Below are positions 2,048 through 28,005 of a stretch of 64,000 nucleotides of DNA, in pieces (the stretch's first letter is position 1; every line of letters starts with the position of its first letter). The notes under the pieces are model-generated. The model did no database searches. It was given only the letters and a program-made list of their open reading frames with translations, and was not told where the DNA came from. Both the position numbers and the translations under genes were made by a program. Source of the DNA: Leptolinea sp. UBA4782 (lineage in GTDB: Bacteria; Chloroflexota; Anaerolineae; Anaerolineales; Anaerolineaceae); contig DHHC01000021.1 in assembly GCA_002403095.1 (NCBI GenBank), positions 1,732 to 65,731 of the forward strand, given 5' to 3'.

Positions 2048-3310
2048 TCAGAATACCCCTTCCGGCTTTGGAATAGACAGGATGCGGCCCAGGTTGAGGA
2101 TGGTGAAATATTTGCGCAGGTATAAACCGTATTCCAGGGCTTCGTGCACATCGGTATCGGTCAGCCCAAGCTGGCTGGGATGGGTAGCACCGCCAACCTT
2201 CACCAGCAGGTCTTTGATCTCTGCTGAGGCCGGTACAGTGGCAGCAAATTGCTGGATCAGTTCCCAGCTGTCTCCAATCTTACGGCACATCCGGGCGAAT
2301 TGCTCCGGGGTTTGCTGGAGCGCTTTTTGCTGCACAGCCAGGATCAACTCAGCAGCGGGACCAAATACAGAACGGATACGGGCAACTTCATCCTCTGCAG
2401 ATGGCATACGGGCAGCCTGTAACCTCTCCAAAGCTTCTTCACGGCTGATCTGGCGCAACAATTCATAGTAGCGTGCAACCAGGATGGCTGCCAGCCCTAC
2501 TTTTGCGCCGTGGAACACGGGCGGCCGGTCTTCGCGCGCCAGCTTCATTTCCCAGTAATGCGAAATGACATGTTCAGCGCCTGAAGCCGGGCGTGAATTG
2601 CCCTGCAGGAGCATACAAATGCCTTCCTCGACCAGTCCTTCCATTAACTTATGCATGGCAGTTTCCCACTGGTCGTGCAGAACAGGTACCTGGTCCACAC
2701 AGGTTTGCAGCGCCCTGCGCGAGCGGTCAGCCAGCTCCTGGCTGAAGGCTTCCCCGGCGATGTGGTAGCTGATCGGCCAGTCTGCCAGGGCAGTGTACTT
2801 GCCGAACATGTCGCCGAAGCCCGAAGCGATCAGCGGGCGCGGGGCATGGGTCAGGGTGTCCAGGTCAGCAAAGATCCCTACCGGGGCGGCTGCCATGATG
2901 GTTTGCTTGTATTTCTGGATGGTCAGGGCGCAGCCGGTGGATGCGAAGCCGTCCACCGAAGCGGCAGTCGGCAGGGAAATAAAGGGCATGCCTGCCCGGT
3001 GGCTACAAAAACGCACGATATCGGTCAGGGTTCCTGAACCCACCCCAAGATAGACCCGCCGGCGCTCATCCGGCTCCAGCAGCACCTGGATGAGGTAGGT
3101 CTCATCCGGGGTCGCATTGCCCGGCAGCACAATGGTGCGCAGGCTGCGGTCAATTTTACGGATGGCTGTCTCAACCTCCCGTCCCAGGGCTTCGTATTCG
3201 TTTTCATCCGTCACCAGCGTGAATGCAGTGTATTGCTGCTTAGTAATGAATTTTTCGAGCTCGCTGACGGCGTTTTTGCCAATGTACACTTCGGGAAGCT
3301 TTACGGGCAT
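2048..3310 (-). CDS. AraM-type sn-glycerol-1-phosphate dehydrogenase (iron-containing ADH / dehydroquinate synthase-like superfamily)
   Basis: 420 aa. Blocks VGSGTLTDIVRF, PFISLPTAASVDGFAS, FADLD, GFGDMFGKYTALADWPIS and SRPASGAEHVISH match Bacillus subtilis AraM as I recall it. GGAGAT lies 5 nt before the ATG. Confidence 0.8.
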   Translation of the reverse strand: MPVKLPEVYIGKNAVSELEKFITKQQYTAFTLVTDENEYEALGREVETAIRKIDRSLRTIVLPGNATPDETYLIQVLLEPDERRRVYLGVGSGTLTDIVRFCSHRAGMPFISLPTAASVDGFASTGCALTIQKYKQTIMAAAPVGIFADLDTLTHAPRPLIASGFGDMFGKYTALADWPISYHIAGEAFSQELADRSRRALQTCVDQVPVLHDQWETAMHKLMEGLVEEGICMLLQGNSRPASGAEHVISHYWEMKLAREDRPPVFHGAKVGLAAILVARYYELLRQISREEALERLQAARMPSAEDEVARIRSVFGPAAELILAVQQKALQQTPEQFARMCRKIGDSWELIQQFAATVPASAEIKDLLVKVGGATHPSQLGLTDTDVHEALEYGLYLRKYFTILNLGRILSIPKPEGVF

Positions 3311-4502: not shown

Positions 4503-5549
4503 TTACACACCCATTACCTTGCGGATGTTCTCAGTAAATGGCGGGTAGATCACCCCGCGCTCGGTAATAATGGCGGTGATCAGCTCCGCCGGGGTAACGT
4601 CAAAAGCCGGGTTACAGACAGGGGTTCCTTCCGGGGCGACCATCTCCTTACCAATACGGATGATCTCGTCTGCGCCTCTCTCTTCGATCTCGATAAAATC
4701 GCCTGAGGGAATGTCCAGGTCAATGGTGCTGGTCGGTCCAACGATATAGAATGGCACATGGTGAGCTTTTGCTACCAGCGCCAGATTATAGGTGCCCACT
4801 TTATTGGCGGTATCACCATTGGCTGCCACCCGGTCGCAGCCCACCGTTACCAGGTCAACCCCCCGGTTTTTCATAATATAGCCGGAGGCGCCATCCACGA
4901 TCAGGGCATGCGGAATGCCCAGGTGTTTCAGTTCCCAGGCAGTCAGTCGGGCACCTTGCAGCCTCGGCCTGGTTTCATCCACGTACACAAAGACTTCCCG
5001 TCCGTGTTCATGGGCGGTGCGGATCAGGCCCAGCGCAGTGCCGTAATCCACTGTAGCCAGGGCGCCGGTATTGCAGTGGTGAATGAAGGCGGCTTTTTGG
5101 GGGACCAGGGACAGCCCGTTCAAGCCGATCTGCTTGTTGGTCTCGATATCTTCCTGCTCCATCTTCTGTGCTTCCGCAAGCACTGCAGCCCGCAACTCGC
5201 CAGGGGCGCCTGATTTTAGTAAAGCAACCCTGTTCAACACCCTGTCCACCGCCCAGAACAGGTTGACGGCAGTTGGACGGGCAGCTTTCAGCATTGCACC
5301 TGCCTGCTGCAGTTCTTCAAGCAGGTCTTGTGTATATTCGGCTGTGCTGTTTCGTGCTGCTATGGCAAGCCCGTAGGCTGCCGCCACCCCGATGGCAGGA
5401 GCGCCGCGCACCACCATCTGGCGGATGGCATCCGCCACCCCCGCCGGGGAATCGTAGTCCACATATACCAGCTCCGCGGGCAATGCCCGCTGGTCAAGCA
5501 GGCGTAGCTTACCCTCGGGGAGCCATTTCATCGTAAAGTAATCGCTCAT
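4503..5549 (-). CDS. mtnA: S-methyl-5-thioribose-1-phosphate isomerase (eIF-2B alpha/beta/delta family)
   Basis: 348 aa. LLDQRALP...VRGAPAIGVAAAYG and the C-terminal NPAFDVTP motif are typical of MtnA. Confidence 0.9.
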   Translation of the reverse strand: MSDYFTMKWLPEGKLRLLDQRALPAELVYVDYDSPAGVADAIRQMVVRGAPAIGVAAAYGLAIAARNSTAEYTQDLLEELQQAGAMLKAARPTAVNLFWAVDRVLNRVALLKSGAPGELRAAVLAEAQKMEQEDIETNKQIGLNGLSLVPQKAAFIHHCNTGALATVDYGTALGLIRTAHEHGREVFVYVDETRPRLQGARLTAWELKHLGIPHALIVDGASGYIMKNRGVDLVTVGCDRVAANGDTANKVGTYNLALVAKAHHVPFYIVGPTSTIDLDIPSGDFIEIEERGADEIIRIGKEMVAPEGTPVCNPAFDVTPAELITAIITERGVIYPPFTENIRKVMGV

Positions 5550-5553
5550 AATA

Positions 5554-7398
5554 TCACTTCCGGGGAGACTTCTCTTGAGAAAAATACATCGATTGGATGA
5601 AGCTGTCGGTAAACCCTGGATAAATGGTCAACTCAATATAGTTGACCTCCCCTGCTAGCTGGCAGGCGGCTGCCCGGTTCTTCTTTGAGAGCAGCATCAT
5701 CTTGGCGCCGGCGCCGGCTGCATTGCCCACCTGGTGATACCGTTCCAGCGGCACATCCGGGAACATGCCGATGCGCACCGCGCTGGACAGGTCGAGGAAG
5801 GTTCCGAAAGCCCCGGCAATGATCCAGCGGTCAACTTCTTCCGCCCCGATTCCGGCGGTTTGCAGCAATACGTTGATACCGGTCCGGATGGCACTCTTCG
5901 CAAGCTGGATCTCGTGCACATCCTTGCGCGTGATCACAATGTCCCGGCCAACCCCTGAATCACCGGCTTCAACCAGCACAAACTCAGAATTGTTGTTTGC
6001 CAGGCGCACCCGTTCGTGTTCCCGGTCCATAGCCCCGCGCCGGTCAATAATATGCGCATCCAGCATTTCAGCGATGCCGCTCAAAATGCCCGTACCGCAG
6101 ATACCCACTGCTGGCACCCTGCCGATGGTGGTTACATGGACATTCCCATCCTCGATGCGTACTTTTTCAATGGCGCCGGCTGAAGCCCGCATACCATCCT
6201 TGATATGTGCCCCTTCGAAAGCCGGACCGGATGCGGTGGAACAGGAAAAGATCCGTCCGCGGTCAATCAGGCTGATCTCGGTATTGGTGCCGATATCCAC
6301 CAGCACCACCCGCTGGTCTTTTACTTCAGGATAAATACTTAGCAAGGCAGAAGTGTGGTCTCCGCCGATATACCCGGCGATGTTAGCCGGTGTGTGCAGG
6401 AGCGCTCCGTCCGCCAGTGCCAGCCCAACCTCACCCGCCAGGATATCAAGCGGCTCTGCCACTGCAGGTACATAAGGCGCGGCCCCCAGCTGCCTGACTG
6501 GCAGCCGGCAGAAGAAATGGTGCATGGCAGTGTTCCCCACCAGCACTGCATCCACCACCTGGCTGCGCGCAATCCCGGCTTCGGTACACATGCCTGTAAT
6601 GGCTTGGTTGAGGGTTTCTACCAGGCGGGTTTGCAGCAGCGTCTGGTTCTCAATCCCCTGGTTGGCAAAGGCAATCCGGCTGACAATGTCTTCACCGAAC
6701 GCGATCTGGGGGTTCATCACCCCGGTTTTGGCTGCGGTGATGCCGCTGGCAAGGTCAACCAGGTACAGGGCAAGTTTGGTCGAACCCATATCCACAGCCA
6801 GCCCGTACAGCGGTGTTCCGACAGGCAGCGTTGCCACCAGTATTGCCGCTTCATGGCCAGGTCTGACAGCCAAACGTACTTTCCAATCCTGTGCACGAAG
6901 CATCTCGCTCAGGCGGGTAATCCCTGCCAGGTCTGCCTGCAGCGGGGATAACCCCATTTTCTTCACTTCCTGGTCAACCCGGGTGAAATCTGAGCGCAGG
7001 TCGGTATTGGCAGGCAGCGGGATTTCCAGGTCAAGCGGCACTACCGCCGGATCCAGGTCGAAAAGCCTGTCCTGCCCGTCCACCTGCAGGCGCTGCATTG
7101 CCGGCATGGATTCGGGCGGTATTTCTATCCTGACATCCCCGGCAGGGTAAGCCTGGCAGGCAAGCCGGTAACCGGCATTCAGCTGATCTGCGGTTAATGT
7201 CTCTGTTTCAACCTCAGTAACCGCGGACAGCCTGCCCTTGATCAGCCTCACCTGGCAGGTTCCACAGATGCCTGCCCCGCCGCACACTGCAGCAAGGTCT
7301 GCACCTGCATGCTGTGCAGCTGCAAGCAGGCTGACATCCCCTGGTACTTCGAGGCGCCTGCCAATGGGGGTGAATTCGACCTTGTATTGTCCAATCAT
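5554..7398 (-). CDS. Reductive activase of corrinoid enzymes (RACo-type): N-terminal plant-type 2Fe-2S ferredoxin plus ASKHA ATPase domain
   Basis: Track ORF 5554..7455. Start set to MIGQYKVEF (ATG 7398), which forms an ATGA overlap with the upstream stop. CGGAGICGTCQV...ACQA is a Fer2 motif. DMGSTK and DIGTNTE are ASKHA phosphate motifs. Confidence 0.8.
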   Translation of the reverse strand: MIGQYKVEFTPIGRRLEVPGDVSLLAAAQHAGADLAAVCGGAGICGTCQVRLIKGRLSAVTEVETETLTADQLNAGYRLACQAYPAGDVRIEIPPESMPAMQRLQVDGQDRLFDLDPAVVPLDLEIPLPANTDLRSDFTRVDQEVKKMGLSPLQADLAGITRLSEMLRAQDWKVRLAVRPGHEAAILVATLPVGTPLYGLAVDMGSTKLALYLVDLASGITAAKTGVMNPQIAFGEDIVSRIAFANQGIENQTLLQTRLVETLNQAITGMCTEAGIARSQVVDAVLVGNTAMHHFFCRLPVRQLGAAPYVPAVAEPLDILAGEVGLALADGALLHTPANIAGYIGGDHTSALLSIYPEVKDQRVVLVDIGTNTEISLIDRGRIFSCSTASGPAFEGAHIKDGMRASAGAIEKVRIEDGNVHVTTIGRVPAVGICGTGILSGIAEMLDAHIIDRRGAMDREHERVRLANNNSEFVLVEAGDSGVGRDIVITRKDVHEIQLAKSAIRTGINVLLQTAGIGAEEVDRWIIAGAFGTFLDLSSAVRIGMFPDVPLERYHQVGNAAGAGAKMMLLSKKNRAAACQLAGEVNYIELTIYPGFTDSFIQSMYFSQEKSPRK

Positions 7399-8093
7399 GG
7401 CGTTTCCAGTGCCTGGTGATAGCTGCACATGCTGTTCATCGAGCAGAACTTGCATGGCTTGCCGCCCCTCTGGATTTGCCCACCCAGGCCGATGGCCATA
7501 GAGGCGGATTTACGCGGCAGCATCATGCCGCTAGGCAAGAGCCTGACCAGCTGCGGATCTGGCTGCAGGGCAGCAAACACCTGGGGCTGCCCCTGCTCAA
7601 CGCTCCACCCCAACATGCCGGGGCTGAAAGCAATAGTGGAAGATTGTCCTGCTGCCTCTGCCTGCTGCTCGATCTTCTGGCAATACCAGAAGGAAAGCAT
7701 ATCAACTGCCGCGTTCGCCAGGCCGTCCAGCGCCAGGCTTAGTGCCATATCGCCGTCATGCCCGGCCTGGTGAATTTTTTCCTCAAGCGCGGAACCAATC
7801 GTAACGATTGCCAGGGCTATCCTGTCTGCCCCGTCCAGCTGTTCGCTGATCAATTCCCCTGCCAGTGCGTATATTCCGTTCAGGAAGATACCCGTCTGTT
7901 TGTCCTTGCTGACCGAAAAAGTATCATGAATAACAGCAGGGCTTACCAGCCCTGCCCCAACATCGATCGCTTTTTCTGCCAGGTCCACCAGGACGGGACG
8001 GCGCACACGCACTACGGCCGGATCTGCCCCCTGACCCCGCAGGACCATATCTGCTGTGAAGTCCAGAGGAATATCTGTGTAGATTTGTGCCAA
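7395..8093 (-). CDS. Methionine synthase (MetH) activation-domain protein
   Basis: 232 aa. Overall resemblance to the stand-alone B12-dependent methionine synthase activation domain (SPG..GW, LP..MM.P..S blocks), with a C-terminal CxxC...C tail. TTG start with GAGG 7 nt upstream. Confidence 0.65.
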   Translation of the reverse strand: MAQIYTDIPLDFTADMVLRGQGADPAVVRVRRPVLVDLAEKAIDVGAGLVSPAVIHDTFSVSKDKQTGIFLNGIYALAGELISEQLDGADRIALAIVTIGSALEEKIHQAGHDGDMALSLALDGLANAAVDMLSFWYCQKIEQQAEAAGQSSTIAFSPGMLGWSVEQGQPQVFAALQPDPQLVRLLPSGMMLPRKSASMAIGLGGQIQRGGKPCKFCSMNSMCSYHQALETP

Positions 8094-8102
8094 ACTTAGC
8101 CT

Positions 8103-8999
8103 CTATGATGCAGCATCCAGCCGGGATACCGTGGCTGCAATGGCTGCCAGGTGTTCCGGGGATGTACCGCAGCACCCGCCTACCAGGCTGGCACCGGCTT
8201 CTACCCAGGCCGGGACATTATCGCCCATGTCTTGCGGGCTGACATCGTAAACGGTATTGCCGCTTTCGTCCACCCTCGGAAGGCCGGCATTGGGTTTAAA
8301 CCAGATCGGCAGGCTGGTAGCAGAACGCAGCTCTCTGAGCGCTTTCATGTTCTCATCCAGGCTGCGCCCGCAATTGATTCCGAGGATATCCACCTTGAAT
8401 TGCTGCAGCTCTGCAGCTGCCTGGGCGGGTTTTACCCCCATCATCGTGCGCCCGGCGCGCTCATAGCTGAAGGAGACCGCCAGAGGCAGGCTGGAGACTG
8501 AGCGCACCCCTTTCACCGCAGCCAAAGCCTCGCCGAGGTCGAACTGGGTCTCGATCACAAGCAGGTCCACCCCGGCTGCTGCCAGGCTGACAGCCTGGGC
8601 TGCGTAGGATGCTTCAGCGTCTGCCGGATCCAGGGTTCCCAACGGGGAAAGCATTTGCCCGGTTGGGCCAAGAGAACCAGCCACAAAGACATCCGTCCCT
8701 TCGGCCGCCTGCTTTGCCAGTGCAGCTGCCTTGCGGTTGATCTCATCGGCTTTATCCTGCAGGTTAGCATGCTGCAGCCGGTAGCGGTTGCCATTGAACG
8801 AACAGGTCAGGATGACATTCGCTCCCGCCTGGATGAAATCCTGGTGGAGCTGAAGGATCTTTTCCGGATGCTCGAGCATCCAGCTTTCACTTAACTGGCC
8901 GCTTTCCAGTCCGCGCGCTTGCAGGTTCGTGCCGGTCGCACCATCCAGCACGAGCACTTTGCCGGCTGCCAGTGTGGCTAAAATATCTTTTGGGGGCAT
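8103..8999 (-). CDS. Homocysteine S-methyltransferase-domain protein (MetH Hcy-module-like)
   Basis: 298 aa. LDGATGTNL N-terminus. Zn-ligand cysteines occur in GINCGRS and VGGCCGTSPEH. Confidence 0.85.
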   Translation of the reverse strand: MPPKDILATLAAGKVLVLDGATGTNLQARGLESGQLSESWMLEHPEKILQLHQDFIQAGANVILTCSFNGNRYRLQHANLQDKADEINRKAAALAKQAAEGTDVFVAGSLGPTGQMLSPLGTLDPADAEASYAAQAVSLAAAGVDLLVIETQFDLGEALAAVKGVRSVSSLPLAVSFSYERAGRTMMGVKPAQAAAELQQFKVDILGINCGRSLDENMKALRELRSATSLPIWFKPNAGLPRVDESGNTVYDVSPQDMGDNVPAWVEAGASLVGGCCGTSPEHLAAIAATVSRLDAAS

Positions 9000-9023
9000 G
9001 TTTCTCTTTTCCCTGAGAGCAGA

Positions 9024-9662
9024 TTACGATGCTGCCAGGCTCTTGGCCAGGGCAACTGCCCGGCTGGCATCCGGCGCAAACCCGTCAGCGCCGATTTCGT
9101 GGGCATACTGGCTGGTCACCGGCGCTCCACCGATCAGAACCTTCACTTTGCTGCGCAGCCCGGCTTCTTCCAGGGCTTCGATTGTAGTCTTCATGTTCGG
9201 CATGGTGGTGGTTAAAAGGGCAGACATAGCCACAAAATCAGCTTCATTCTCGCGCACGGCATCCACGAACTTTTGGGGAGGCACATCCGAGCCGAGGTCA
9301 ACAATCTCAAATGCGGCGCCTTCGAGCATCATGCTCACCAGGTTCTTACCAATATCATGCAGGTCGCCTTTTACCGTTCCTATAATGATCTTGCCGGCAG
9401 ATTTGTAGCTTTCCTTTACCAGGCGTGGCTTGAGGATGCTCAACCCGGCTTGCATTGCCTTGGCGGAGATCAGCATTTCGGGCACGAAATACTCGCCCTC
9501 TTCAAATAGCTTACCCACCTCGGTCATGGCAACAATCATACCTTCGTTCAGAATCAAAGCAGGATCCACACCTGCGTCCAGGGCTGTTTGCACTGCTGCA
9601 GCTGACTTATCGGCTGCCCCATCAATGATGGCGTTATAAATGGCTTTTAAGCTGTCTTCCAT
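9024..9662 (-). CDS. Cobalamin-binding corrinoid protein (MtmC/MtbC/MttC-like)
   Basis: 212 aa. B12-binding motifs GDLHDIGKN (DxHxxG), SALLTTT (SxL) and LIGGAP (GG). AAGGAG lies 8 nt before the ATG. Confidence 0.9.
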   Translation of the reverse strand: MEDSLKAIYNAIIDGAADKSAAAVQTALDAGVDPALILNEGMIVAMTEVGKLFEEGEYFVPEMLISAKAMQAGLSILKPRLVKESYKSAGKIIIGTVKGDLHDIGKNLVSMMLEGAAFEIVDLGSDVPPQKFVDAVRENEADFVAMSALLTTTMPNMKTTIEALEEAGLRSKVKVLIGGAPVTSQYAHEIGADGFAPDASRAVALAKSLAAS

Positions 9663-9801
9663 AAGGTCCGCTCCTTTTCCACAATTATACTAGCAACCCC
9701 GGCCTGGCCGGGTGCTGCCGTGTTTTCCATATTTATGCACTTCATGCCAATCAGCGCGGCCTTATTTACCCGCTGATTCGAAAAAAACAGAAAACTTCCT
9801 G

Positions 9802-11175
9802 CTACACTTCCAGGCCCAGGCTGCGCACTTCCTGCTTGACTTCATCGTACATGCGCTGCCACCCAGCAACCGGTTCAAGCGTTTCCAGGTTGTATGCCTG
9901 GTCAAAGCGCACACCCGGGTTGCCTTCCGGCAGGGAGAAAATGGGCTCATAGCGCTGCAGGAGCCGTGAAACCAGCTCGTTCACCTGGGCAGCATTCAAA
10001 CCCTGGCGGGTGACTGCATGCCCCACCTCGCCCATCCAGCGCACTTCCAGTCCGGTACCGTTGGGCAGGGCGCCGTCCGCCGCACCAACCCCTTCCAGGT
10101 GGGCGCCACTGTAAGAGATCACGGCGGCATTGGCTGCCACTTCATATAACAGCTCGCAGGTCAGTGCGCCCGATTTGGGGAAGATGTCTGCCACGATGAT
10201 GGCAGGCGAATTACGCGCAAAAGCCCGTGCCACCACGCCTTCAACCCACATCACCCCCCGGGTGGATGTGGCTACATGCCGGATGTGGATGGGATGCAGC
10301 AGGTGATAGTCTGCCTGGCATACCAGGTTTGCCAGCATGAAAGAAGCCGCCTGTACCACCGCTGCCCCAGGTGCATTCCCGGCCAGTCCGCCGACCATCA
10401 CGCATGCCAGCGAGGCGTTGCGCGCCCCGTAGGTCTTGCCGTTGGCAGCCCGCACCAGGCTGCCGCGGTCGATCATCAATTCGTTCAGCATCGGAACCAG
10501 GTGCGCATCCGTTGGGCGCAGGAAAGCCGGGTTCATCACGCACAGGTCGCCCAGCTCTGAGACACTGCTCTGGGCGGCCAGCAATCCCATGCCCGAGCGC
10601 CCTAGCTTGCGCAGCCCATCACGCAGCAGCGTCAGCTCGTTGCGAGTGGCATACACTTCTTCCGGCTCGCCGGAAACCACGGGATGACCCTTGTAAGTAA
10701 CCAGCGAACCGCAGGTTGCCAGGTCTACAATGGGTTCTTTCATCCAGCTCATCACCATCGGCTGGAAGATTTCTTCAGGCGTCGGGACTCCCGGGTTGCC
10801 AGCCCACACAGCGGGAGGGTTGGTATCCCTTTCTTTTCTCGCACGCAGCACCCGTGCATCACTGCCTTCGCCGAAAACCAGTTCACGCGGGGCGTTCTGC
10901 AAGCCTTCCTCGATCTCAGCACGGCTGAAGCGGATCACCTTACTGGTGGAAACATTATAAACACCCAGCGTTTCTGCCAGTTCAAGCGCCGCCTGAAATA
11001 CCCGGTCTACCAGGGCATCATCCAGCGGGATAATCTCCTGCGAATCCCACTTGATGTCATATTTCGAAACCAGGCTGCGGGTGGTCATAACCACCCCTTC
11101 AAAATCCCAGTCTTCTTTCTTGACCGTTTTTCCCGTACGTGACATTTCAAGTATATCGAGGAACTCTGTGGTCAT
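9802..11175 (-). CDS. MtmB-family (monomethylamine methyltransferase-like) protein without pyrrolysine codon
   Basis: Uninterrupted 457 aa. Collinear similarity over the whole length to Methanosarcina MtmB as I recall it (DWD, FGEGSDA..R.RK, GRSGMG, PIHIRH..TSTRG, GLEVRWMGEVG, C-terminal LGLEV). AGGAG lies 8 nt before the ATG. Confidence 0.8.
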   Translation of the reverse strand: MTTEFLDILEMSRTGKTVKKEDWDFEGVVMTTRSLVSKYDIKWDSQEIIPLDDALVDRVFQAALELAETLGVYNVSTSKVIRFSRAEIEEGLQNAPRELVFGEGSDARVLRARKERDTNPPAVWAGNPGVPTPEEIFQPMVMSWMKEPIVDLATCGSLVTYKGHPVVSGEPEEVYATRNELTLLRDGLRKLGRSGMGLLAAQSSVSELGDLCVMNPAFLRPTDAHLVPMLNELMIDRGSLVRAANGKTYGARNASLACVMVGGLAGNAPGAAVVQAASFMLANLVCQADYHLLHPIHIRHVATSTRGVMWVEGVVARAFARNSPAIIVADIFPKSGALTCELLYEVAANAAVISYSGAHLEGVGAADGALPNGTGLEVRWMGEVGHAVTRQGLNAAQVNELVSRLLQRYEPIFSLPEGNPGVRFDQAYNLETLEPVAGWQRMYDEVKQEVRSLGLEV

Positions 11176-11352
11176 AGTATCTCCTGAAAGTAATGTGGAT
11201 TTAAGTTTACCCTAAACCGCGTAACAATTCTGATTGAAAGGAGTATTATATCTATACTTAATTAGTTTTCATGTATACTAACAATAAGCAGTACCTTACA
11301 GACCCGAAAAGATACTCTGTTCAGAAATTAAAACCCAAAGGAGGTGGTGAAA

Positions 11353-11427
11353 GTGGCTTTATACATTCTGGTGAACGTGGTTATCCTGGTAGTGCTGGGC
11401 CTGATCGCCCGTTTCTTCAGTAAATGA
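11353..11427 (+). CDS. Candidate 24-aa single-pass membrane peptide (M)ALYILVNVVILVVLGLIARFFSK
   Basis: Own reading, below the track cutoff. GTG start preceded by AAAGGAGGTGGTGA, a strong SD. A hydrophobic core is followed by a basic tail. It ends 48 nt before the ECF S-component gene. Confidence 0.35.
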   Translation: MALYILVNVVILVVLGLIARFFSK

Positions 11428-11475
11428 AACCTGTAATACTTTCGTATCAAATCAATCTAGAGGAGGAGTAATTCA

Positions 11476-12042
11476 ATGGAAAAACGTGGTGGTTGGGATT
11501 TTAAATATAAAACTCGCGATATTGTCATAATCGCGGTTATTGCAGCAATTGCAGGTGTGGTCAATACCGGTATTGGCAACCTGTGGTACCTGGCAAATAC
11601 ATCGCTTGGCCCAATGGGTGGTGCATTGCTGCAAGGCGCATTCATGTGGGCTTATGTCCTGGTCATGTGGCTGGTCCGCCGTCCCGGTGCTGCCATTTTA
11701 CTTGGCATTATTGAAACAACCGTAGAGGTTTTAATGGGCAATGCCTCTGGTATCGGCACCCTGGGTTGGGGCCTTTTCCAGGGCCTGGGCGTTGAGGTAA
11801 TTATGGCCATCAGCGGTTACAAAAAATTCGGCCTGCTGGCTGCCATGATGGCTGCTGCGGGCGCTTCACAATTCGGTACCGTCTGGACCGCCATTCTCTT
11901 CGGCTGGGATCCAGCTTACGCCAAAGATGTCTGGCTGGCAATCCCGATCAACTTGATCTCGGGTCTTGTGATTAGTGGTTTGCTGGGGTATTATTTAGCC
12001 AAGGCGCTGGCAAAAACAGGTTTGATCCGCTCGGCTCAATAA
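11476..12042 (+). CDS. ECF transporter substrate-capture (S) component, YkoE family
   Basis: 188 aa and polytopic. RRPGAAILLGIIETTVEVLMGNASG, FQGLGVEV and LISGLVISGLLGYYLAKALAKTGLI match B. subtilis YkoE blocks as I recall them. GGAGGAG RBS. Confidence 0.8.
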   Translation: MEKRGGWDFKYKTRDIVIIAVIAAIAGVVNTGIGNLWYLANTSLGPMGGALLQGAFMWAYVLVMWLVRRPGAAILLGIIETTVEVLMGNASGIGTLGWGLFQGLGVEVIMAISGYKKFGLLAAMMAAAGASQFGTVWTAILFGWDPAYAKDVWLAIPINLISGLVISGLLGYYLAKALAKTGLIRSAQ

Positions 12043-12118
12043 CCTGAATTTAATTTTCCAGATCGGCGGGAAAGGGATGTGTCACCGTTCACCCTTTCCC
12101 GCTTTTCGGGACTAAACC

Positions 12119-13876
12119 ATGACTGAAACCAATATTATCGCCGAACTACGCAACGTTTCTTACACTCACTGGAACCACCAGGAACCCACGTTAAAGAATG
12201 TTACATTGCAGCTGCAAAGGGGAACACTTTCGGTCCTGGTTGGACCGGGAGGCAGCGGCAAGTCAACCCTGTGCGACCTGTTAAATGGCCGCATTCCCAA
12301 GCTGTTGGGCGGCCAGTTGACCGGCGAGGTGATTATCGACGGGCTGGATACCGCAAAGGTGGAAGTGAAAGAGCTCACCAAGCGGGTGGGGTCGGTCTCG
12401 CAGGATCCCGAAACCATGTTTGCCACCCTGTACGTCGAAGATGAGATCGCCTTTGGACCGGAAAACCTGCTGGTAGATGCGGATGAAATTCGCCTTACTG
12501 TGGAAGAACTGCTGGATGTGACCCAACTGCGCCCCCAACGGCGCAACCTGGTATGGCACCTTTCCGGCGGTCAGGTGCAAAAGCTGGGGCTGGCTACCGC
12601 CCTGGCTATGAAACCCTCCCTCATCATCCTGGATGAGCCCACCGCCAACCTGGACCCCATCGCCACCCTCAGCGTGTATGATATGGTCCTTAAATTACGC
12701 GAACAGGGTATGACCATCCTGCTGGTCATTCGGGAACTGGATGAATTCCTATCCTGTGCTGACCAGGTGCTCCTTTTGCAGGAAGGAACCCTCCTCACCT
12801 CCGGAACACCCCAGGAGGTGCTCAAATCTCACGGGGAAGCTATGTTCACCTCCCTGGGGGTTTGGCTGCCGGAGACGACCGAGATCGGCCTGACCCTCCG
12901 GAACCGGCACAATATCCAGATGCGGGACATTCCTATCACTGTACCGGAGACCATTGCCTTGCTGCAGGACAATCACCTGCTGGATCAGCCCCTGGTGCTC
13001 CCCGTCCGGGAAGCACAGCCTGCCACAGTACAGCCGGAACTGCTGGTTGAAGCCAAAAACCTCAGCTTCCGCTATGCGGAAGGCACGCATGCCCTAAAAG
13101 ATGTTTCTTTCAACATCCATGCTGGCGAGTTGCTGGCAATCGTCGGGCGCAACGGGGCAGGCAAGAGCACCCTGGCCAAGCTGCTGGTTGGCCTGCTTAA
13201 ACCGCAAGCCGGCAGCCTGACCTTGTTTGACAAACCGGCGGCACAGTGGAAGGTGGAAGACCTTGCCAACCACATTGCCCTGGTCTTCCAGAATCCCGAG
13301 CACCAGTTCCTTACTGACAAAGTGTGGGACGAGATCGACTACAGCCTGCTGGCGCGCAACGTAACCGACCTGGAAGTGCGCAAAGAGACCATCCAGGAAT
13401 CGCTAACCCGCCTGGGACTGGAAGCTGTGGTGGATAAGCACCCGTTCTCCTTGAGCGCCGGAATGAAACGCCGCCTGGGCGTTGCCACCATGCTGGTTTG
13501 CCGCCCGCGCATCCTGCTGGTGGATGAACCCACTTATGGGCAGGATAAACAGATGACGCAAACCCTGATGCACTTCATGGAAGAGATCCGGGCAGAAGGG
13601 ATAGCTGTAGTGATGATCACCCATGACATGCGCCTGGTGCAGGAGTATGCCCAGCGCGTGATCGTAATGAGCGAAGGGCAATTGCTGTTCGACGGCCAGC
13701 CCCAAGGCCTGTTCAACCAGGATGAGATCCTGCAGGCAGCCAACCTGCGCAAGACAGTTCTGCATGACCTGGTGAGTGAACTGACCGCCCGGGGCGTGCT
13801 TATCAGCGGCGAGGTGCGCACCACTTCTGACCTGCTGACAGCGCTCACCACCCGCGAGGAGGTGCAGAATGGCTGA
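12119..13876 (+). CDS. Fused double ATPase of an ECF transporter (YkoD/EcfA-EcfA')
   Basis: 585 aa with two ABC cassettes: Walker A GPGGSGKST and GRNGAGKST, signatures LSGGQ and LSAGM, Walker B ILDEP and LLVDEP. Confidence 0.9.
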   Translation: MTETNIIAELRNVSYTHWNHQEPTLKNVTLQLQRGTLSVLVGPGGSGKSTLCDLLNGRIPKLLGGQLTGEVIIDGLDTAKVEVKELTKRVGSVSQDPETMFATLYVEDEIAFGPENLLVDADEIRLTVEELLDVTQLRPQRRNLVWHLSGGQVQKLGLATALAMKPSLIILDEPTANLDPIATLSVYDMVLKLREQGMTILLVIRELDEFLSCADQVLLLQEGTLLTSGTPQEVLKSHGEAMFTSLGVWLPETTEIGLTLRNRHNIQMRDIPITVPETIALLQDNHLLDQPLVLPVREAQPATVQPELLVEAKNLSFRYAEGTHALKDVSFNIHAGELLAIVGRNGAGKSTLAKLLVGLLKPQAGSLTLFDKPAAQWKVEDLANHIALVFQNPEHQFLTDKVWDEIDYSLLARNVTDLEVRKETIQESLTRLGLEAVVDKHPFSLSAGMKRRLGVATMLVCRPRILLVDEPTYGQDKQMTQTLMHFMEEIRAEGIAVVMITHDMRLVQEYAQRVIVMSEGQLLFDGQPQGLFNQDEILQAANLRKTVLHDLVSELTARGVLISGEVRTTSDLLTALTTREEVQNG

Positions 13877-14654
13877 AGGTCAGCATAGTTTACGGTACAT
13901 TGAGCGCGATGCCGTCATGCACCGCATTTACCCGCTGGTGAAACTGGCCTGGGTTTTCATGGTTGCAGCCGGACTGTTCCTGTACAAAACCCCCTTATCC
14001 GGCGCCATCAATTTTGTGATCCTGCTGCTGCTGACTGTCTTCCTGGGGAAAATACCCCTGCGCGAGATCCTAAGCAGCTCCAAATTCATCCTGGGGCTCG
14101 GGTTGATCCTGATGTTTTTCCATTTAATCGCTGACCCCGGAAATGTTGTTTACCAGCTTGGACCTTTGAAAGTGACGGATACCGGCTTGATCCAGGGTCC
14201 AATCTTTTTCTTCCGCCTATCAGTGGTCGTGCTGGCAAGTTTTGTGCTGATCTGGACAACCGACACGCGCGACCTGATGGTTTCCCTTGCCAAGGCGGGC
14301 ATACCCTACCGGTTCGCCTTTGCCGTATTCCTGGCGCTGCGCTTCCTGCCGCTTGTTCAGCAGGAGGTAGATGCCGTCCGCTCAGCCCACGCCATCCGCG
14401 GCAGGGCTTCGAAATCTTCGCTCGGTCACCGCATCAAGCTCTGGCAGCGCTATATGTTCACCGTCCTGGTGAATGGCCTTCGCAAGGCCGAAGCAGCAGC
14501 CGCTGCGCTGGAATGCCGCGCCTTTGGCAGCAGCCCGACACGGACGTATGTGAAGGATGTCCATTTTCACGCCGTTGACCTGGTCCTATTGATCGTAACT
14601 GCTGCAATTATCACCGTCCTGGTCCTGAGGGAAAGGACCGGTTTCCTGTTCTAG
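13869..14654 (+). CDS. ECF transporter transmembrane (T) component (EcfT/CbiQ/YkoC family)
   Basis: 261 aa and polytopic. AIRGRA-type coupling helix motif (AHAIRGRAS). 8-nt overlap with the ATPase gene. Confidence 0.85.
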   Translation: MAEGQHSLRYIERDAVMHRIYPLVKLAWVFMVAAGLFLYKTPLSGAINFVILLLLTVFLGKIPLREILSSSKFILGLGLILMFFHLIADPGNVVYQLGPLKVTDTGLIQGPIFFFRLSVVVLASFVLIWTTDTRDLMVSLAKAGIPYRFAFAVFLALRFLPLVQQEVDAVRSAHAIRGRASKSSLGHRIKLWQRYMFTVLVNGLRKAEAAAAALECRAFGSSPTRTYVKDVHFHAVDLVLLIVTAAIITVLVLRERTGFLF

Positions 14655-14673
14655 GGGGCAGCGCTAATCCAAC

Positions 14674-15576
14674 ATGCGGGTCTTTTTCGCTGATCATATA
14701 ACGGTGCCTTTACCGGACAACCACCGCTTCCCTATGGCAAAGTATGCCATGCTGCATCATGCCCTTGTTGCCGAAGGTATATTACAGCCAGAGGAACTGG
14801 TTCCGCCTGAGCCAGCCACCCGGGCGCAGGTGACCGTGGCTCACACCCCGGAGTATTTCGATGCCTTTGTGGATGGCAGCCTGGCGCCCGAGGTCATCCG
14901 CGAAATCGGCATCCCCTGGAGCCCTGAATTTGTTCAGCGTACCCTGGCAAGCATGGGCGGATCTATCGCAGCCGCCAGGCAGGCCTTGAAAGACGGATTC
15001 TCCGGCAACCTGGCCGGGGGTACGCATCACGCTCTGGCAGACCGCGGAGGGGGATTTTGCGTTTTCAACGACATTGCCATTGTCAGCAAGCTGCTGCTGC
15101 AGGAAGGCGCTGCAGAGCGGATTGCTGTGGTTGACCTGGATGTCCACCAGGGGAATGGCACCGCCGCTATCCTGGCAGGCGAACCGCGCACGTTCCTGTT
15201 CAGTATGCACGGACAGAAGAATTTCCCATTCCGCAAAGTACCCTCCACCCTCGATATCGGCCTGCCGGACAATGCCTCGAATACAGTATTCCTTACTTCA
15301 CAACAGACAGGGTTGGATGAAGTACGCGCTTTCTCCCCGGACCTGGTCATTTACCAGGCTGGTGTCGATCCGCTGGAAACCGACCGCCTGGGACGCCTGA
15401 ACCTGACCATGGACGGCCTGGCAGAGCGCGACAGGATGGTACTGCAGTTGTGCCGGGATACCCGCATCCCTGTCGTCATGCTGATGGGCGGCGGTTACGC
15501 CAAACCGATCGAGGATACTGTCCTGGCGCATGTCCAATCCTACAGGATAGCCCGCCAGGTGTTTTCCAGCCTGTAA
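14674..15576 (+). CDS. Histone deacetylase-family amidohydrolase (class II HDAC / AcuC-like)
   Basis: 300 aa. GGTHHA, GFCVFND and VDLDVHQGNGT motifs. Confidence 0.85.
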   Translation: MRVFFADHITVPLPDNHRFPMAKYAMLHHALVAEGILQPEELVPPEPATRAQVTVAHTPEYFDAFVDGSLAPEVIREIGIPWSPEFVQRTLASMGGSIAAARQALKDGFSGNLAGGTHHALADRGGGFCVFNDIAIVSKLLLQEGAAERIAVVDLDVHQGNGTAAILAGEPRTFLFSMHGQKNFPFRKVPSTLDIGLPDNASNTVFLTSQQTGLDEVRAFSPDLVIYQAGVDPLETDRLGRLNLTMDGLAERDRMVLQLCRDTRIPVVMLMGGGYAKPIEDTVLAHVQSYRIARQVFSSL

Positions 15577-15649
15577 GCTCAGCTACACTACATTCCTTGC
15601 CGGTTACGGTATAATCCCGGCAGGGGAAAATCATCCCGAGGGAATATCT

Positions 15650-16354
15650 ATGCAGCTTTATTTTGTACGGCACGGCCAATCAGAAAACAACCTGTTATGG
15701 GAAATACACGGGTATGAACTGGGACGCAGCGATGACCCGGATCTGACCGAACGCGGCCAATTACAGGCACAGGCAGTCGCTGGCCTGATTGCATCCGGTC
15801 ACCCGCAATATCCATGCCTGGGAAATCCAGGCGGATTCGGCATTACGCATGTGTACAGCAGCCTGATGGTGCGGGCTGCTGCCACCGGGCACGCCATCGC
15901 AGACCGTCTTGACCTGCCACTGACCGCCTGGCCAGAGGTGCATGAGACTGGCGGGATTTACCATGACATTGAAGACCAGCAGGTCGGGCAGCCCGGCAAA
16001 ACCCGCTCTTATTTACAGGAACGCTTCCCGCGATTGGTCTTGCCCAATTGGGTGGATGAAAACGGCTGGTGGAACCGCCCCTTCGAAGAGCGGCCGGAGC
16101 GCATCCTGCGCGCCAGGAAGGTTGTGGAACAGCTATACGAAAGACACGGGGGTACAGACGATAAAGTTGTGATGGTCAGCCATGGCGGTTTCTACAATTA
16201 CCTGCTGGCTGCTCTGATGGACCTGCCAGCCCGCAACCCGGTCTGGTACCTGCTGAACAACACAGCAATCAGCCGGATCGATTTCAACAGAGATGAGGTA
16301 CTGGTGGTTTACCAGAACCGCATCGACCACCTCGGACCGGATCTGCTAGAGTAA
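15650..16354 (+). CDS. Histidine phosphatase family protein (phosphoglycerate mutase-like)
   Basis: The YFVRHGQSENN catalytic RHG motif is at the N-terminus. GAGGGA RBS. Confidence 0.8.
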   Translation: MQLYFVRHGQSENNLLWEIHGYELGRSDDPDLTERGQLQAQAVAGLIASGHPQYPCLGNPGGFGITHVYSSLMVRAAATGHAIADRLDLPLTAWPEVHETGGIYHDIEDQQVGQPGKTRSYLQERFPRLVLPNWVDENGWWNRPFEERPERILRARKVVEQLYERHGGTDDKVVMVSHGGFYNYLLAALMDLPARNPVWYLLNNTAISRIDFNRDEVLVVYQNRIDHLGPDLLE

Positions 16355-16398
16355 GAACGAAGATAAGCCAGGGCAAAACCCCTCTGGCGTGCATTAAT

Positions 16399-16534
16399 TG
16401 TCATTCTGAACGAAGTGAAGAATCTCGCCCTGAAAGTCCAAAACAAGAACCTTCGGCCGCAATCGCCCTCAGGAAGACGACGTAGACTGATCTGTCATCC
16501 TGACAAATCGAAGAGAATTGCTCTTAAAAGCATA
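16399..16534. repeat. Interspersed hairpin-forming repeat: one full unit (16399..16480) plus a partial unit (16493..16534)
   Basis: TGTCATTCTGAACGAAGTGAAGAATCTCGCC...GAACCTTCGGCCGCAA...CCTCAGGAAGACGA. The termini are inverted (TGTCAT.CTGA / CCTCAGGA.GACA). The same family occurs at 25707..25970. Confidence 0.75.
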
Positions 16535-16540
16535 AGAAAA

Positions 16541-16566
16541 ACCCGGCTCCTTGTGATCCGGGTTTT
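16541..16566. terminator. Hairpin between convergent genes (candidate bidirectional terminator)
   Basis: ACCCGG-N-CCGGGT stem flanked by an A-run on the left and TTTTGG on the right. It lies between 15650..16354 (+) and 16573..17346 (-). Confidence 0.5.
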
Positions 16567-16572
16567 GGTTCC

Positions 16573-17346
16573 CTAGAACGAAAAATGCCTGACCTGCTTC
16601 AACGCGGCAGCTGTCTGCCTGGCAGCATCATCCAGGTATTTTTCTCCACGCGCAGGGTCAGCTGTGTGGGGATTGCCCAGTACCCCCTCCGAGGCAATAT
16701 CATCCGTCAGCCAGGCAAAATTTAAAGCGCCCATGAACGGCGGGGTTTCCTGTGCCAGCAGCCTCTCCGGAATGCCGTGCGGAGCCTGATCCATGTGCAC
16801 CAGGTCCGGTGTACAACTTAGCAGGACCGAGGTCTCCACATCCCCGGCGTGGATGCCGAAGACTTTCTCGCTCTCGCTTAATCCTTCCTCCGGCACCGCA
16901 ACCCGCAGGAAGAGGTGTAAAGCGAACACCATCAGCCCGGTCTTCTCGCGGATGTCGCGGATGGCAAAGTCGATCACTTCGGTATTGCCGCCGTGACCGT
17001 TGAGGATGACAAAGCGCTTGAACCCGCTGCGGGCAACGCTCTCTCCGATCTCCATTAGCACATGCAGCAGGGTTTCTGCGGTCAGGGTAACGGTGCCGGC
17101 AAAGTGGATGTGCTCATTGCTCTTACCGTATGCCTGGTGCGGGAGGGTATAGATGCCCGGCTCATCGCCCAACAAGCTCAGGCTGCGCTGCAGCACTTCC
17201 TGGGTGATGATGCTGTCGGTGTAAACCGGCAGGTGTGGGCCGTGCTGCTCAATGGAGGCAACCGGTAAAACCACAACCGCATGTTCTTTATCCGGCAGGG
17301 TTGCAATCTGGCGGCTGGTCAGGTGGGGTAAAAAGTGTGCATCCAT
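16573..17346 (-). CDS. Creatininase-family amidohydrolase
   Basis: Track ORF 16573..17382 (TTG). The ATG at 17346 (MDAHFLPHL...) lies 4 nt after the PPK2 stop. SIEQHGPHLP and ILNGHGGN motifs. Confidence 0.8.
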   Translation of the reverse strand: MDAHFLPHLTSRQIATLPDKEHAVVVLPVASIEQHGPHLPVYTDSIITQEVLQRSLSLLGDEPGIYTLPHQAYGKSNEHIHFAGTVTLTAETLLHVLMEIGESVARSGFKRFVILNGHGGNTEVIDFAIRDIREKTGLMVFALHLFLRVAVPEEGLSESEKVFGIHAGDVETSVLLSCTPDLVHMDQAPHGIPERLLAQETPPFMGALNFAWLTDDIASEGVLGNPHTADPARGEKYLDDAARQTAAALKQVRHFSF

Positions 17347-17350
17347 GTGC

Positions 17351-18163
17351 TTACCCGACCAACTCTGTGCGGTATTTTTCAATATCCTCAGCCGGTTGAG
17401 GATATTTCATTTTCAGTTTTTCCAGGGTGGCAACCATGATGCGTGATATCGCCAGGTTGCGGTACCATTTCTTATCCGATGGGATCACATACCAGGGCGC
17501 CCACTGGCGGCTGGTCTTCTCCAGCACAGCTTCGTAGGCTTTCTGGTATTCATCCCACTGCGCCCGCGTGTCCAGGTCACCCGGGTTGAACTTCCAGCGT
17601 TTGGCAGGGTCGTCCACCCTCTCCAGCAGGCGTTCACGCTGTTCATCTTTGTTGACGTGCAGGAAGAATTTCAAGATAGTAGTGCCTTCATCCGCCAGCA
17701 TGCGCTCGAAAGCGTTGATGTGGTCGAAACGTTTTTTCCAGACATTATCGGGAACCAGCTTGAGCACCCTGACAGCCAGCACATCTTCATACTGGCTGCG
17801 GTTGAAGATGACAATCTCGCCTTTCGCGGGGGTGTACTTGTGGATCCTCCACAGGTAATCATGGGAGAGTTCTTCGGGGGTGGGCACCTTGAAAGAGGCT
17901 ACTTTTACCCCCTGCGGGTTGACCCCGTCAAATACATGCCGGATGACTCCGTCCTTGCCGGCTGCATCCATGCCCTGCAGGATGATGAGCAGTTTATGCT
18001 TGCCTTCTGCGTACAGCAGTTCTTGCAGCGACTCCAGCTTAGCATTCAGCTTTTCGATTTCCGGAGCGGCATCCGCCTTTTTGCCCTCAAAATCAGGCGT
18101 GCTGTCTGTTTTCCATTCATTTAGATCGACTTTCTTCCCGGGTTCGACATAAAATTGTTTCAC
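17351..18163 (-). CDS. ppk2: Polyphosphate kinase 2 family (polyphosphate:nucleotide phosphotransferase)
   Basis: 270 aa. LQGMDAAGKDG Walker A-like motif and YLWR/FNRSQYEDVL blocks. GTG start with AGGAGGTG 5 nt upstream. Confidence 0.85.
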   Translation of the reverse strand: MKQFYVEPGKKVDLNEWKTDSTPDFEGKKADAAPEIEKLNAKLESLQELLYAEGKHKLLIILQGMDAAGKDGVIRHVFDGVNPQGVKVASFKVPTPEELSHDYLWRIHKYTPAKGEIVIFNRSQYEDVLAVRVLKLVPDNVWKKRFDHINAFERMLADEGTTILKFFLHVNKDEQRERLLERVDDPAKRWKFNPGDLDTRAQWDEYQKAYEAVLEKTSRQWAPWYVIPSDKKWYRNLAISRIMVATLEKLKMKYPQPAEDIEKYRTELVG

Positions 18164-18292
18164 TGTTCACCTCCTGAGCAGAGCTCCCTGGATTATTAGT
18201 AATCTCTCACGCACTTTTCCTATTTTACAATGGAATGGCACCGTGAATTCAAATATAATAGGATAAATGTATTAAGGGGACGGAGGTTAACA

Positions 18293-18652
18293 ATGTACAT
18301 GTGCATGTTCGTTTTAAATGATCCAGACCGGCTGGATGAAATTCTCGAAGCCTGGAACGCAGCCGGCATCAGCGGCGCAACCATTTTGGAAAGCACCGGC
18401 AGTTACCGTTACCGCGCCAATTTGAGCAAGCTGCATATGCGCTTCTTGCCTGAAGCACACCAATTGATGTCTGACCAGTTCAACTATACCCTTTTTGTGC
18501 TGGTGAGGGAAAGAGCCCAGGTGGATGCCTGCCTGCAGGTTATCGAACAGGTCATCGGTGACCTGAACAATCCAGACACTGGCGTTTTCGCTGCCTGGCC
18601 GCTGGAAGTGATCGAGGGAGTGTCTTCAGGTGCTGTAAAGGAAGGCTCCTGA
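18293..18652 (+). CDS. Small P-II-like (GlnB-fold-like) protein, family uncertain
   Basis: Track ORF 18230..18652. Start moved to ATG 18293 behind GGAGG. The beta-alpha-beta pattern MCMFVLNDPDRLDEILEAWNAAGISGATILESTG resembles P-II. Its stop overlaps the next start (TGATG). Confidence 0.5.
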   Translation: MYMCMFVLNDPDRLDEILEAWNAAGISGATILESTGSYRYRANLSKLHMRFLPEAHQLMSDQFNYTLFVLVRERAQVDACLQVIEQVIGDLNNPDTGVFAAWPLEVIEGVSSGAVKEGS

Positions 18653-21638: not shown

Positions 21639-21729
21639 TTTGGTACCTGTTTTTCTTTCCACGCTATTATTGCGGTTAAGCGTTGATCTCCTTCATTTCG
21701 GTAGAGGTTGGTTTTTACGGCCCGAGGAT

Positions 21730-22875: not shown

Positions 22876-22936
22876 GGTTTTCTCTCTACCCTCCTGACGA
22901 ACAAATCCTTCATTTTGTTCCATACATTTAAATAAT

Positions 22937-27933: not shown

Positions 27934-28005
27934 AGCGCTTTCTCCAATCTTAATCTGTTGTGTTAAAAGTGTCCTTTGCCAGGCCCCGGAGGGCAAACCT
28001 GCACC

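Follow-up and report, generated by a model that had tools for sequence, protein, structure and literature searches.

The stretch of DNA analysed here, hereafter the window, comprises 64,000 nucleotides of a contig of Leptolinea sp. UBA4782 and contains five minus-strand open reading frames (ORFs) at positions 5554..11175 that together may form a modular, corrinoid-dependent route of methyl transfer to homocysteine. In gene order these encode an MtmB-family protein (9802..11175), a corrinoid protein (9024..9662), a homocysteine S-methyltransferase (HcyMT, 8103..8999), a protein resembling the activation domain of MetH (Act, 7395..8093) and a reductive activase of the RACo type (5554..7398). All five were found where the original prediction for this DNA had placed them, and the tight packing described there was confirmed by reading the sequence. 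The intergenic gaps are 139 nt (9663-9801), 24 nt and 9 nt; the Act and RACo genes overlap by 4 nt (ATGA, 7395-7398), and mtnA (4503-5549) begins 4 nt past the RACo stop. The product of mtnA, methylthioribose-1-phosphate isomerase, is also encoded on the minus strand (TIGR00512, 426 bits, above cut-off) and provides a methionine-salvage context. An alternative start for RACo exists at 7455, and the ATG at 7398 gives a protein of 614 amino acids, in agreement with homologues of 618-619 amino acids and with the start of the family model. Judged by their length and strong family matches, the five ORFs are not chance reading frames.

The 9802..11175 protein is a non-pyrrolysine member of the MtmB family of substrate:corrinoid methyltransferases and a putative MT1. 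The match to PF05369 spans the full length of the protein (residues 6-455 on profile positions 4-450, E 2e-90), and the structure of Methanosarcina barkeri MtmB, PDB 1l2q, was matched at E 1.6e-59. Leu199 sits opposite pyrrolysine-202 of 1l2q (GMGL-L against GMGV-Pyl) and is invariant among 13 relatives, and the ORF has no in-frame stop, so that the UAG-encoded pyrrolysine of MtmB proper is absent. The protein matched over 1000 clusters formed at 90% identity, and those named by source derive from metagenome-assembled genomes (MAGs) of Anaerolineae/Chloroflexota. The nearest genomic locus, from an uncultured Leptolinea sp. (Anaerolineaceae), carries an MtmB homologue of 93% identity with complete synteny. 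Second and third MtmB paralogues, at 31-34% identity to the window protein, occur in four related loci (L018, L024, L031 and L038), several of them with their own adjoining corrinoid protein, which indicates that several distinct non-pyrrolysine MtmB lineages exist in the Anaerolineae.

The assignments of the corrinoid protein, HcyMT and RACo were likewise borne out. The corrinoid protein consists of a B12 cap and a Rossmann domain (minus strand; B12-binding_2 and B12-binding, Pfam E 2e-22 and 8.5e-29) and carries the expected DxHxxG, SxL and GG motifs as D100-L-H-D-I-G (residues 100-105), S147-A-L and G178-G. Its NCBIfam matches to the MtgC/pyl_corrinoid models were all under cut-off. RACo, an ATP-dependent activase of corrinoid proteins of the RACo/RamA type (2Fe-2S plus ASKHA, minus strand), contains all four Pfam domains of the family, namely Fer2, RACo_linker, Raco_middle and RACo_C_ter, at E 1.8e-13 to 4.8e-83; an AcsV-like NCBIfam match at 428 bits was under cut-off. 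HcyMT (minus strand; PF02574, E 5e-74) is a stand-alone MetH-type enzyme and a putative, MtgE-like MT2. In the alignment with PDB 1q7m its Cys210 (GINCG) and Cys276/277 (GGCCGT) line up with GINCS and GGCCGT of Thermotoga maritima MetH, whose cysteines in these motifs we take to be the Zn ligands of that enzyme. Cys210, Cys276 and Cys277 are invariant among 14 relatives and are candidate Zn ligands of HcyMT.

As an alternative, HcyMT may act alone as a cofactor-independent methyltransferase from betaine, dimethylsulfoniopropionate (DMSP) or S-methylmethionine to homocysteine, in which case the corrinoid genes would serve another purpose. The purified Bmt of Phaeobacter, a PF02574-only protein, is reported to form methionine from DMSP and betaine without tetrahydrofolate (THF) or cobalamin, and the top NCBIfam match of HcyMT is a BHMT model, though under cut-off (253 against 338 bits). 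Such a role is nevertheless very unlikely here, as HcyMT is much nearer to the homocysteine domains of MetH (1q7m, E 1e-47) than to the structures of MmuM (6e-25) and BHMT (6e-24), and as a corrinoid protein and RACo repeatedly adjoin HcyMT.

Neighbour-joining trees placed the window's corrinoid protein as an orthologue of those associated with HcyMT and not of those cognate to MtmB, and RACo clustered in the same way. On such trees, the corrinoid protein, HcyMT and RACo of the window are orthologues of an HcyMT-RACo-corrinoid protein trio of the Anaerolineae, which in other members of the class is found distant from MtmB (L084-L086, numbers with an L denoting related loci, and many metagenomic loci). 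The MtmB tree indicated that the subclade of the window has lost its cognate upstream corrinoid gene. MtmB of this subclade would therefore need a corrinoid protein from elsewhere, and in Leptolinea one of the trio type is adjacent.

The Act protein (7395..8093, minus strand) had been read as a MetH activation-domain protein able to support SAM-dependent repair of the corrinoid, alongside ATP-dependent repair by RACo. No Pfam or NCBIfam model, PF02965 included, was matched by the protein up to E 10. Its family profile, however, matched TM0269 (PDB 1j6r) at E 6e-14, and PF02965 was weakly matched by 13 of the 32 relatives (best E 4e-6). An AlphaFold (AF2) model was obtained with a pLDDT of 92.9, and the best 19 matches of this model in a Foldseek search of the PDB were all MetH reactivation domains, with 1j6r at E 1.6e-10 and a TM of 0.72. 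On the account of profile and model, the assignment stands at the level of the fold, as a TM0269-like protein. The motif RxxxGY, which binds S-adenosylmethionine (AdoMet) and whose role in Escherichia coli MetH was reportedly described by Dixon et al. in 1996, is absent; AFSPGM is aligned to the RISPGY of TM0269, and the family consensus is PLSPGM. AdoMet-dependent repair by Act is therefore not established, and of the two repair functions the ATP-dependent one holds at the level of the family while the SAM-dependent one is doubtful. Act has cysteines at positions 138, 214, 217 and 223, the last three of which form a C-terminal CxxCx5C motif (C214-x2-C217-x5-C223) that is invariant in the family. 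These residues might bind a metal or an Fe-S centre and serve a function distinct from remethylation by AdoMet. Methionine-cycle genes recur around Act and MtmB modules. In L082 (1809-5189) an Act homologue adjoins IF-2B, PfkB and S-adenosylhomocysteine hydrolase (AdoHcyase) genes, and in L053 (11427-12401) a paralogue of the IF-2B/MtnA family lies immediately after MtmB.

Upstream of the MtmB gene and divergent from it, at 11476-14654, lies an energy-coupling factor (ECF) transporter that the original prediction had overlooked. It is encoded on the plus strand by an S component of the YkoE family (11476..12042; PF09819, E 5e-27; YkoE structure PDB 5edl, E 7e-17), a fused double ATPase (A-A', 12119..13876; two ABC_tran domains; ECF_ATPase_1 and ECF_ATPase_2 at ~400 bits, above cut-off) and a T component of the CbiQ family (13869..14654; PF02361, E 1.5e-34; TIGR02454, 88 bits). 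A PF09819 S component, a duplicated ATPase and a CbiQ-type T component in one operon define it as a Group I (dedicated) transporter of the YkoEDC type, and the S component is the putative binder of the MtmB substrate. A micro-ORF on the same strand (11353..11427), preceded by a strong Shine-Dalgarno sequence and located 48 nt before the S component gene, encodes the hydrophobic 24-amino-acid peptide MALYILVNVVILVVLGLIARFFSK. The same helix precedes EcfS in 49 of the 52 related loci; in 30 it is fused in frame to the S component as an extra N-terminal helix, and in 19 it is a separate mini-gene.

In a neighbourhood survey of 80 species-representative genomes, the ECF transporter was the commonest conserved neighbour of MtmB (~50 of 80 loci), usually lying directly after it and in many cases without a corrinoid gene in the vicinity. 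As the transporter tracks MtmB in this manner, it appears tied to the substrate-specific MT1 and not to B12 supply, and it would then import the methyl donor. The possibility of a CbrT-like B12 importer was considered and not adopted as the main reading; in the PDB the S component matched YkoE alone, and it accompanies MtmB also at loci that lack a nearby corrinoid gene. The MtmB and ECF unit was also observed outside the Chloroflexota, in two Spirochaetes MAGs and one Syntrophothermus MAG (L052, L060 and L070), suggesting horizontal spread of the module.

Linkage of MtmB to a homocysteine methyltransferase, on which the original prediction had made its reading depend, was found to be conserved in two independent gene orders. 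The order MtmB-corrinoid protein-HcyMT-Act-RACo-MtnA was kept in the Leptolinea clade at MtmB identities of 72-93% (the window, L002, L003, L066, the metagenomic L087, and L004 with a frameshifted HcyMT), with mtnA retained downstream of RACo in L002, L003, L004 and L066. An apparent lack of HcyMT in L004 was dismissed, the gene being present with frameshifts that are probably assembly errors. The second order was found in the distant clade b, at 51-53% MtmB identity, in eight species representatives (L073 at 9282-19297, L067, L069, L072, L075, L076, L078 and L080). Here nine genes follow one another on the same strand as corrinoid protein-MtmB-EcfS-EcfAA-EcfT-PF13769-RACo-HcyMT-MtaA-like, with gaps of at most ~125 nt in L073. 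Each of these clusters encodes a single corrinoid protein, a single RACo, a PF13769 protein of 120 amino acids and no pterin gene. The MtaA-like product is of the MtaA/CmuA type, belonging to the uroporphyrinogen decarboxylase (URO-D) family, and the cluster contains two unlike thiol-type methyltransferases. HcyMT followed by an MtaA-like gene was also seen without MtmB (L123, L151 and L158). The two conserved gene orders support a functional link between the MtmB clade and HcyMT.

Neighbour genes were clustered in a set of 85 sequences, made up of MtmB loci, trio loci and 26 kb from the start of the window. This returned only MtmB, ECF, corrinoid protein, RACo, a GntR/UTRA regulator, HcyMT, PF13769 and MtaA-like families, and no product-processing enzyme that could serve as a clue to the substrate. 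The GntR/UTRA (HutC-type) regulator lies upstream of RACo-corrinoid protein-MtmB-ECF clusters in L032 (6448-7188) and 13 other loci, and its ligand might report the MtmB substrate.

Taken as a whole, the locus is read as a modular cobalamin-dependent methyltransferase network of the MtgBCDE/split-MetH type, in which methyl groups of a compound methyl-X would pass via the MtmB-like protein to the corrinoid protein and, through HcyMT, into methionine. We give this reading a probability of roughly 0.55. It agrees with the methionine-cycle context provided by mtnA 4 nt downstream and by an Act homologue near AdoHcyase, and it is favoured by a 408-kb contig that carries the trio as well as MtmB with its transporter, by the loss of the cognate corrinoid gene in the subclade of the window and by the precedents in Ruegeria, Phaeobacter and MtqB set out below. 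From the family assignments and the gene linkage we infer the following catalytic steps, direction of flow and substrate. A methylated compound would be brought in by the YkoE-type transporter (11353-14654 with the micro-ORF); by analogy with the MtmB homologue MtqB, choline, tetramethylammonium or another quaternary or methylated amine may fit. The pyrrolysine-free MtmB-family enzyme would then methylate the corrinoid protein at Co(I), and from there the Zn-dependent HcyMT, to go by its family, motifs and context, would pass the methyl group to homocysteine to yield methionine. RACo is predicted from its family to reduce oxidised Co(II) back to Co(I) with ATP and an electron. Act probably assists in reactivation or in the gating of conformations, by a means that is probably not the canonical binding of AdoMet. 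Together, the corrinoid protein, HcyMT and RACo would constitute the general split methionine synthase core of the lineage, to which the MtmB module adds a methyl-donor input. Methyl-THF may be a second input, by way of a stand-alone pterin methyltransferase encoded elsewhere, as MtgD is in Ruegeria, and replacement of folate by the MtmB module is not proven.

Flow in the opposite direction was considered as well. Methionine or another S-methyl compound would then be demethylated and its methyl group transferred via the corrinoid protein to an acceptor on the MtmB-like protein. Corrinoid methyl transfer to and from thiols is reversible in methanogen systems of the MtsA type, and clade-b clusters include an MtaA-like thiol methyltransferase. 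The characterised MtmB, MttB and MtqB enzymes, however, all donate methyl groups to Co(I), and the methionine-salvage context of mtnA suits methionine formation, making reverse flow extremely improbable.

Several observations weigh against the modular network reading. The trio and the MtmB and ECF unit are unlinked in most Anaerolineae; one 408-kb contig has both, ~270 kb apart, and MtmB is present in only one of 46 longer metagenomic HcyMT loci. In many relatives (group M) MtmB has its own cognate corrinoid protein and RACo directly upstream, and in two loci a pterin methyltransferase follows; methyl flow there may be to THF. In principle, the transporter might carry a different compound. A search for riboswitches and other regulatory RNAs upstream of the MtmB, corrinoid and ECF genes found none, either over the window at Rfam gathering thresholds or over 9600-11560 with E values allowed up to 5. 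Finally, an alignment of the intergenic regions of the window, L002, L003, L004 and L066 revealed a conserved TATAAT (9684..9689, minus strand) within GTTGCTAGTATAAT, directly upstream of the corrinoid gene. This is probably a separate promoter of the genes from the corrinoid protein through HcyMT, Act and RACo to MtnA, and the conserved TAGTATAAT at this position suggests that they form a transcription unit of their own; separate transcription of MtmB is likewise suggested by this conserved -10-like element. In the divergent region upstream of the MtmB gene, a consensus scan returned a promoter-like site, ATGAAA-16-TATAAT (11245..11272, minus strand), at 10/12 as a pattern match only.

In a rival explanation the neighbours do not share a methyl flow. 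The genes from the corrinoid protein to RACo, with or without MtnA, would then be an ordinary multi-part MetH fed by methyl-THF only, through an unlinked pterin subunit, and MtmB with its transporter would rely on a different corrinoid protein and a different acceptor from some other part of the genome. The presence of the trio without MtmB in most genomes and the probable promoter ahead of the corrinoid gene favour this, as do the split MetH of Phaeobacter and Ruegeria with its unlinked pterin subunit and the stand-alone pterin methyltransferases of the Anaerolineae, one of which lies directly upstream of RACo-HcyMT (L164). In trio-type loci DUF1638 adjoins RACo, as in Phaeobacter. Adjacency in the Leptolinea clade is nevertheless kept down to 72% MtmB identity, the independent nine-gene cluster of eight species combines MtmB and HcyMT with one corrinoid protein, one RACo and no pterin gene, and in the MtmB subclade of the window a cognate corrinoid gene is missing from the neighbourhood. 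We regard the explanation without shared flow as possible but, on balance, unlikely. DUF1638 (PF07796) was observed directly after RACo in the HcyMT-associated loci L098, L123, L139, L144 (8766-9554) and L151, and was not found in the window.

The original prediction held that the folate module of MetH had been swapped for an MtmB-like one, allowing methionine formation without methyl-THF. No pterin-binding domain (PF00809) was detected in the five genes or among the Pfam families of the other ORFs of the window, so that a complete MetH with a PF00809 methyl-THF module is encoded in neither. A MeTr probe, which found the pterin domains of MetH in the PDB at ~1e-24, had no match in the six-frame translation of the 64 kb. 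To this extent the earlier claim held. The same probe was applied to six-frame translations of the window and 167 related loci (168 sequences, 2.18 Mb), and closely related stand-alone pterin-binding methyltransferases of the MeTr/MtgD type were found in just four sequences. One follows RACo-corrinoid protein-MtmB-ECF (L035, ~13650-14500), one follows corrinoid protein-MtmB (L042, ~2190-3059), one lies directly upstream of RACo-HcyMT (L164, 3-566) and one is 8 kb from a trio (L121, 11158-12099, minus strand). From this proximity to MtmB in L035 and L042 and to HcyMT in L164 and L121, the Anaerolineae possess an MtgD-like module associated with both. With such a module in relatives, and with the genome seen over 64 kb only, the statement that the folate module was swapped out is unproven, and the orthology of the trio likewise leaves the claim of synthesis without methyl-THF unestablished.

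That these Anaerolineae make methionine without folate, from a methylated micronutrient scavenged by a high-affinity ECF transporter, through MtmB-type loading of the corrinoid protein and a MetH-type module, is considered rather unlikely. The strict form of the swap, a folate-independent methionine synthase with an MtmB-like module fully in place of the pterin module and methyl-X as sole methyl source, is thought quite improbable. It is favoured by the lack of a pterin-binding ORF in the window and in every Leptolinea-clade and clade-b cluster, and by the rarity of pterin genes across the search set (4/168, 2.18 Mb). Against it weigh the limitation of the view of the genome to 64 kb, the clustering of pterin methyltransferases with both MtmB and HcyMT in relatives, the wide occurrence of the trio without a nearby MtmB and the pterin subunit of the characterised analogue, which is essential and unlinked.

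If correct, the modular network reading would show that the shared-corrinoid-protein logic of marine Proteobacteria also holds in the anaerobic Chloroflexota and with a second family of MT1, would provide a route from environmental methylated compounds directly to methionine, and would imply a class of substrate new to ECF transporters. Homologues of MtmB without pyrrolysine are numerous and, MtqB aside, have no known role; the gene neighbourhoods give this MtmB clade a testable context in the form of a dedicated, vitamin-type ECF importer and an HcyMT in two independent arrangements. Were the folate-free reading true, the locus would represent one more class of B12-dependent methionine synthase that needs no folate, and the first physiological role for the large bacterial non-pyrrolysine MtmB clade. 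The current labels, monomethylamine methyltransferase and 5-methyl-THF-homocysteine methyltransferase, are neither of them supported as written.

Elsewhere in the window, three features with no apparent relation to the finding were noted. These are a Pro-TGG tRNA (51772-51845, plus strand), which is the sole tRNA of the window, an N_BRCA1_IG Ig-like domain in two adjoining paralogous proteins (20238-22923, minus strand) and an aldehyde:ferredoxin oxidoreductase (26026-27996, minus strand).

The composition of the locus was compared with known systems; the original prediction had been aware of no characterised one with this composition. Two related though not identical systems have since been described, MtgBCDE in 2025 and the non-pyrrolysine MtmB homologue MtqB in 2026. 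The split methionine synthase of Phaeobacter inhibens consists of a PF02574-only protein, a separate corrinoid protein and an unlinked pterin-binding protein, and also requires a RamA-like activase (Fer2-DUF4445) and DUF1638; the pterin subunit in Phaeobacter and Ruegeria is both essential and unlinked (PMC12478193, PMC5764234). Genetics in Ruegeria pomeroyi showed in 2025 that MtgC, MtgD and MtgE share their corrinoid protein with the MttB-family glycine betaine methyltransferase MtgB, one corrinoid protein thereby serving an MttB-family MT1, a pterin methyltransferase and a PF02574 homocysteine methyltransferase (PMC12478193, PMC5764234). Set against these published descriptions, the window holds the same combination of a corrinoid protein, a separate PF02574 enzyme (MtgE) and a Fer2 plus DUF4445 activase (RamA/RACo), the corrinoid protein being the component that MtgBCDE shares with a substrate-specific non-pyrrolysine MT1. 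The trio of the Anaerolineae is a near counterpart of the split MetH of Phaeobacter, and the pairing of RamA with DUF1638 in Phaeobacter is mirrored by DUF1638 after RACo in several Anaerolineae trio loci. The locus differs in that its MT1 is of the MtmB family (PF05369) and not the MttB family (PF06253), in that no pterin-binding MtgD is present in the cluster or the window, and in that a YkoE-type importer is linked to the MT1 and an Act-like protein is present. The host, moreover, is an anaerobic member of the Chloroflexota and not an aerobic Proteobacterium.

MtqB (ACT9XH_RS04775) of Methanococcoides methylutens, which demethylates tetramethylammonium and choline, is the first characterised non-pyrrolysine MtmB homologue, the remaining ones being termed "of unknown function" in the same paper (PMC13044021). 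The MtqB/MtqC/MtqA system resembles the window in combining a pyrrolysine-free MtmB-family MT1 with a small corrinoid protein, a likeness drawn from its published description only, and its activity makes quaternary amines candidate substrates of the MtmB-like protein. There, however, the acceptor is coenzyme M via the URO-D-type MtqA, in methanogenesis, whereas the linked MT2 in the window is a MetH-type HcyMT. No literature linking non-pyrrolysine MtmB to homocysteine or methionine was found. Bacterial non-pyrrolysine MttB systems (MtgB, MtcB, MtpB and MtyB with partners of the MtqC/MtqA type) follow the same logic of MT1, corrinoid protein and MT2 with a RamA-type activase, but use another MT1 family and, as MT2, a pterin-binding THF methyltransferase in place of HcyMT.

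Thermotoga maritima provides the nearest solved relatives of two of the proteins, the homocysteine domain of its MetH (TM0268, 1q7m) for HcyMT and the separate activation-domain-fold protein TM0269 (1j6r) for the 7395-8093 protein. In TM0268 the homocysteine, pterin and B12 modules are fused, whereas in the window they are separate and no pterin module was seen; TM0269 keeps RxxxGY (RISPGY), whereas the window protein has AFSPGM and the C-terminal cysteine motif. The 'core' folate-independent methionine synthases MesA-D are alike in that methyl-corrinoid and not methyl-THF is thought to be the methyl source, but are MetE-like, in contrast to the MetH-type PF02574 Zn enzyme found here (PMC7857596), and were for this reason set aside as a family match. 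The mlp gene clusters (Kountz and Balskus preprint) were rejected as the type of the locus, being URO-D based; they share the theme of MtaA-like, RACE and corrinoid proteins with clade b. Three-component corrinoid methyltransferase systems and split MetH are thus already known, and the underlying logic was published in 2025, while the combination of an MtmB-family MT1, a MetH-type homocysteine MT2 and a dedicated ECF importer in the Chloroflexota is what the window adds.

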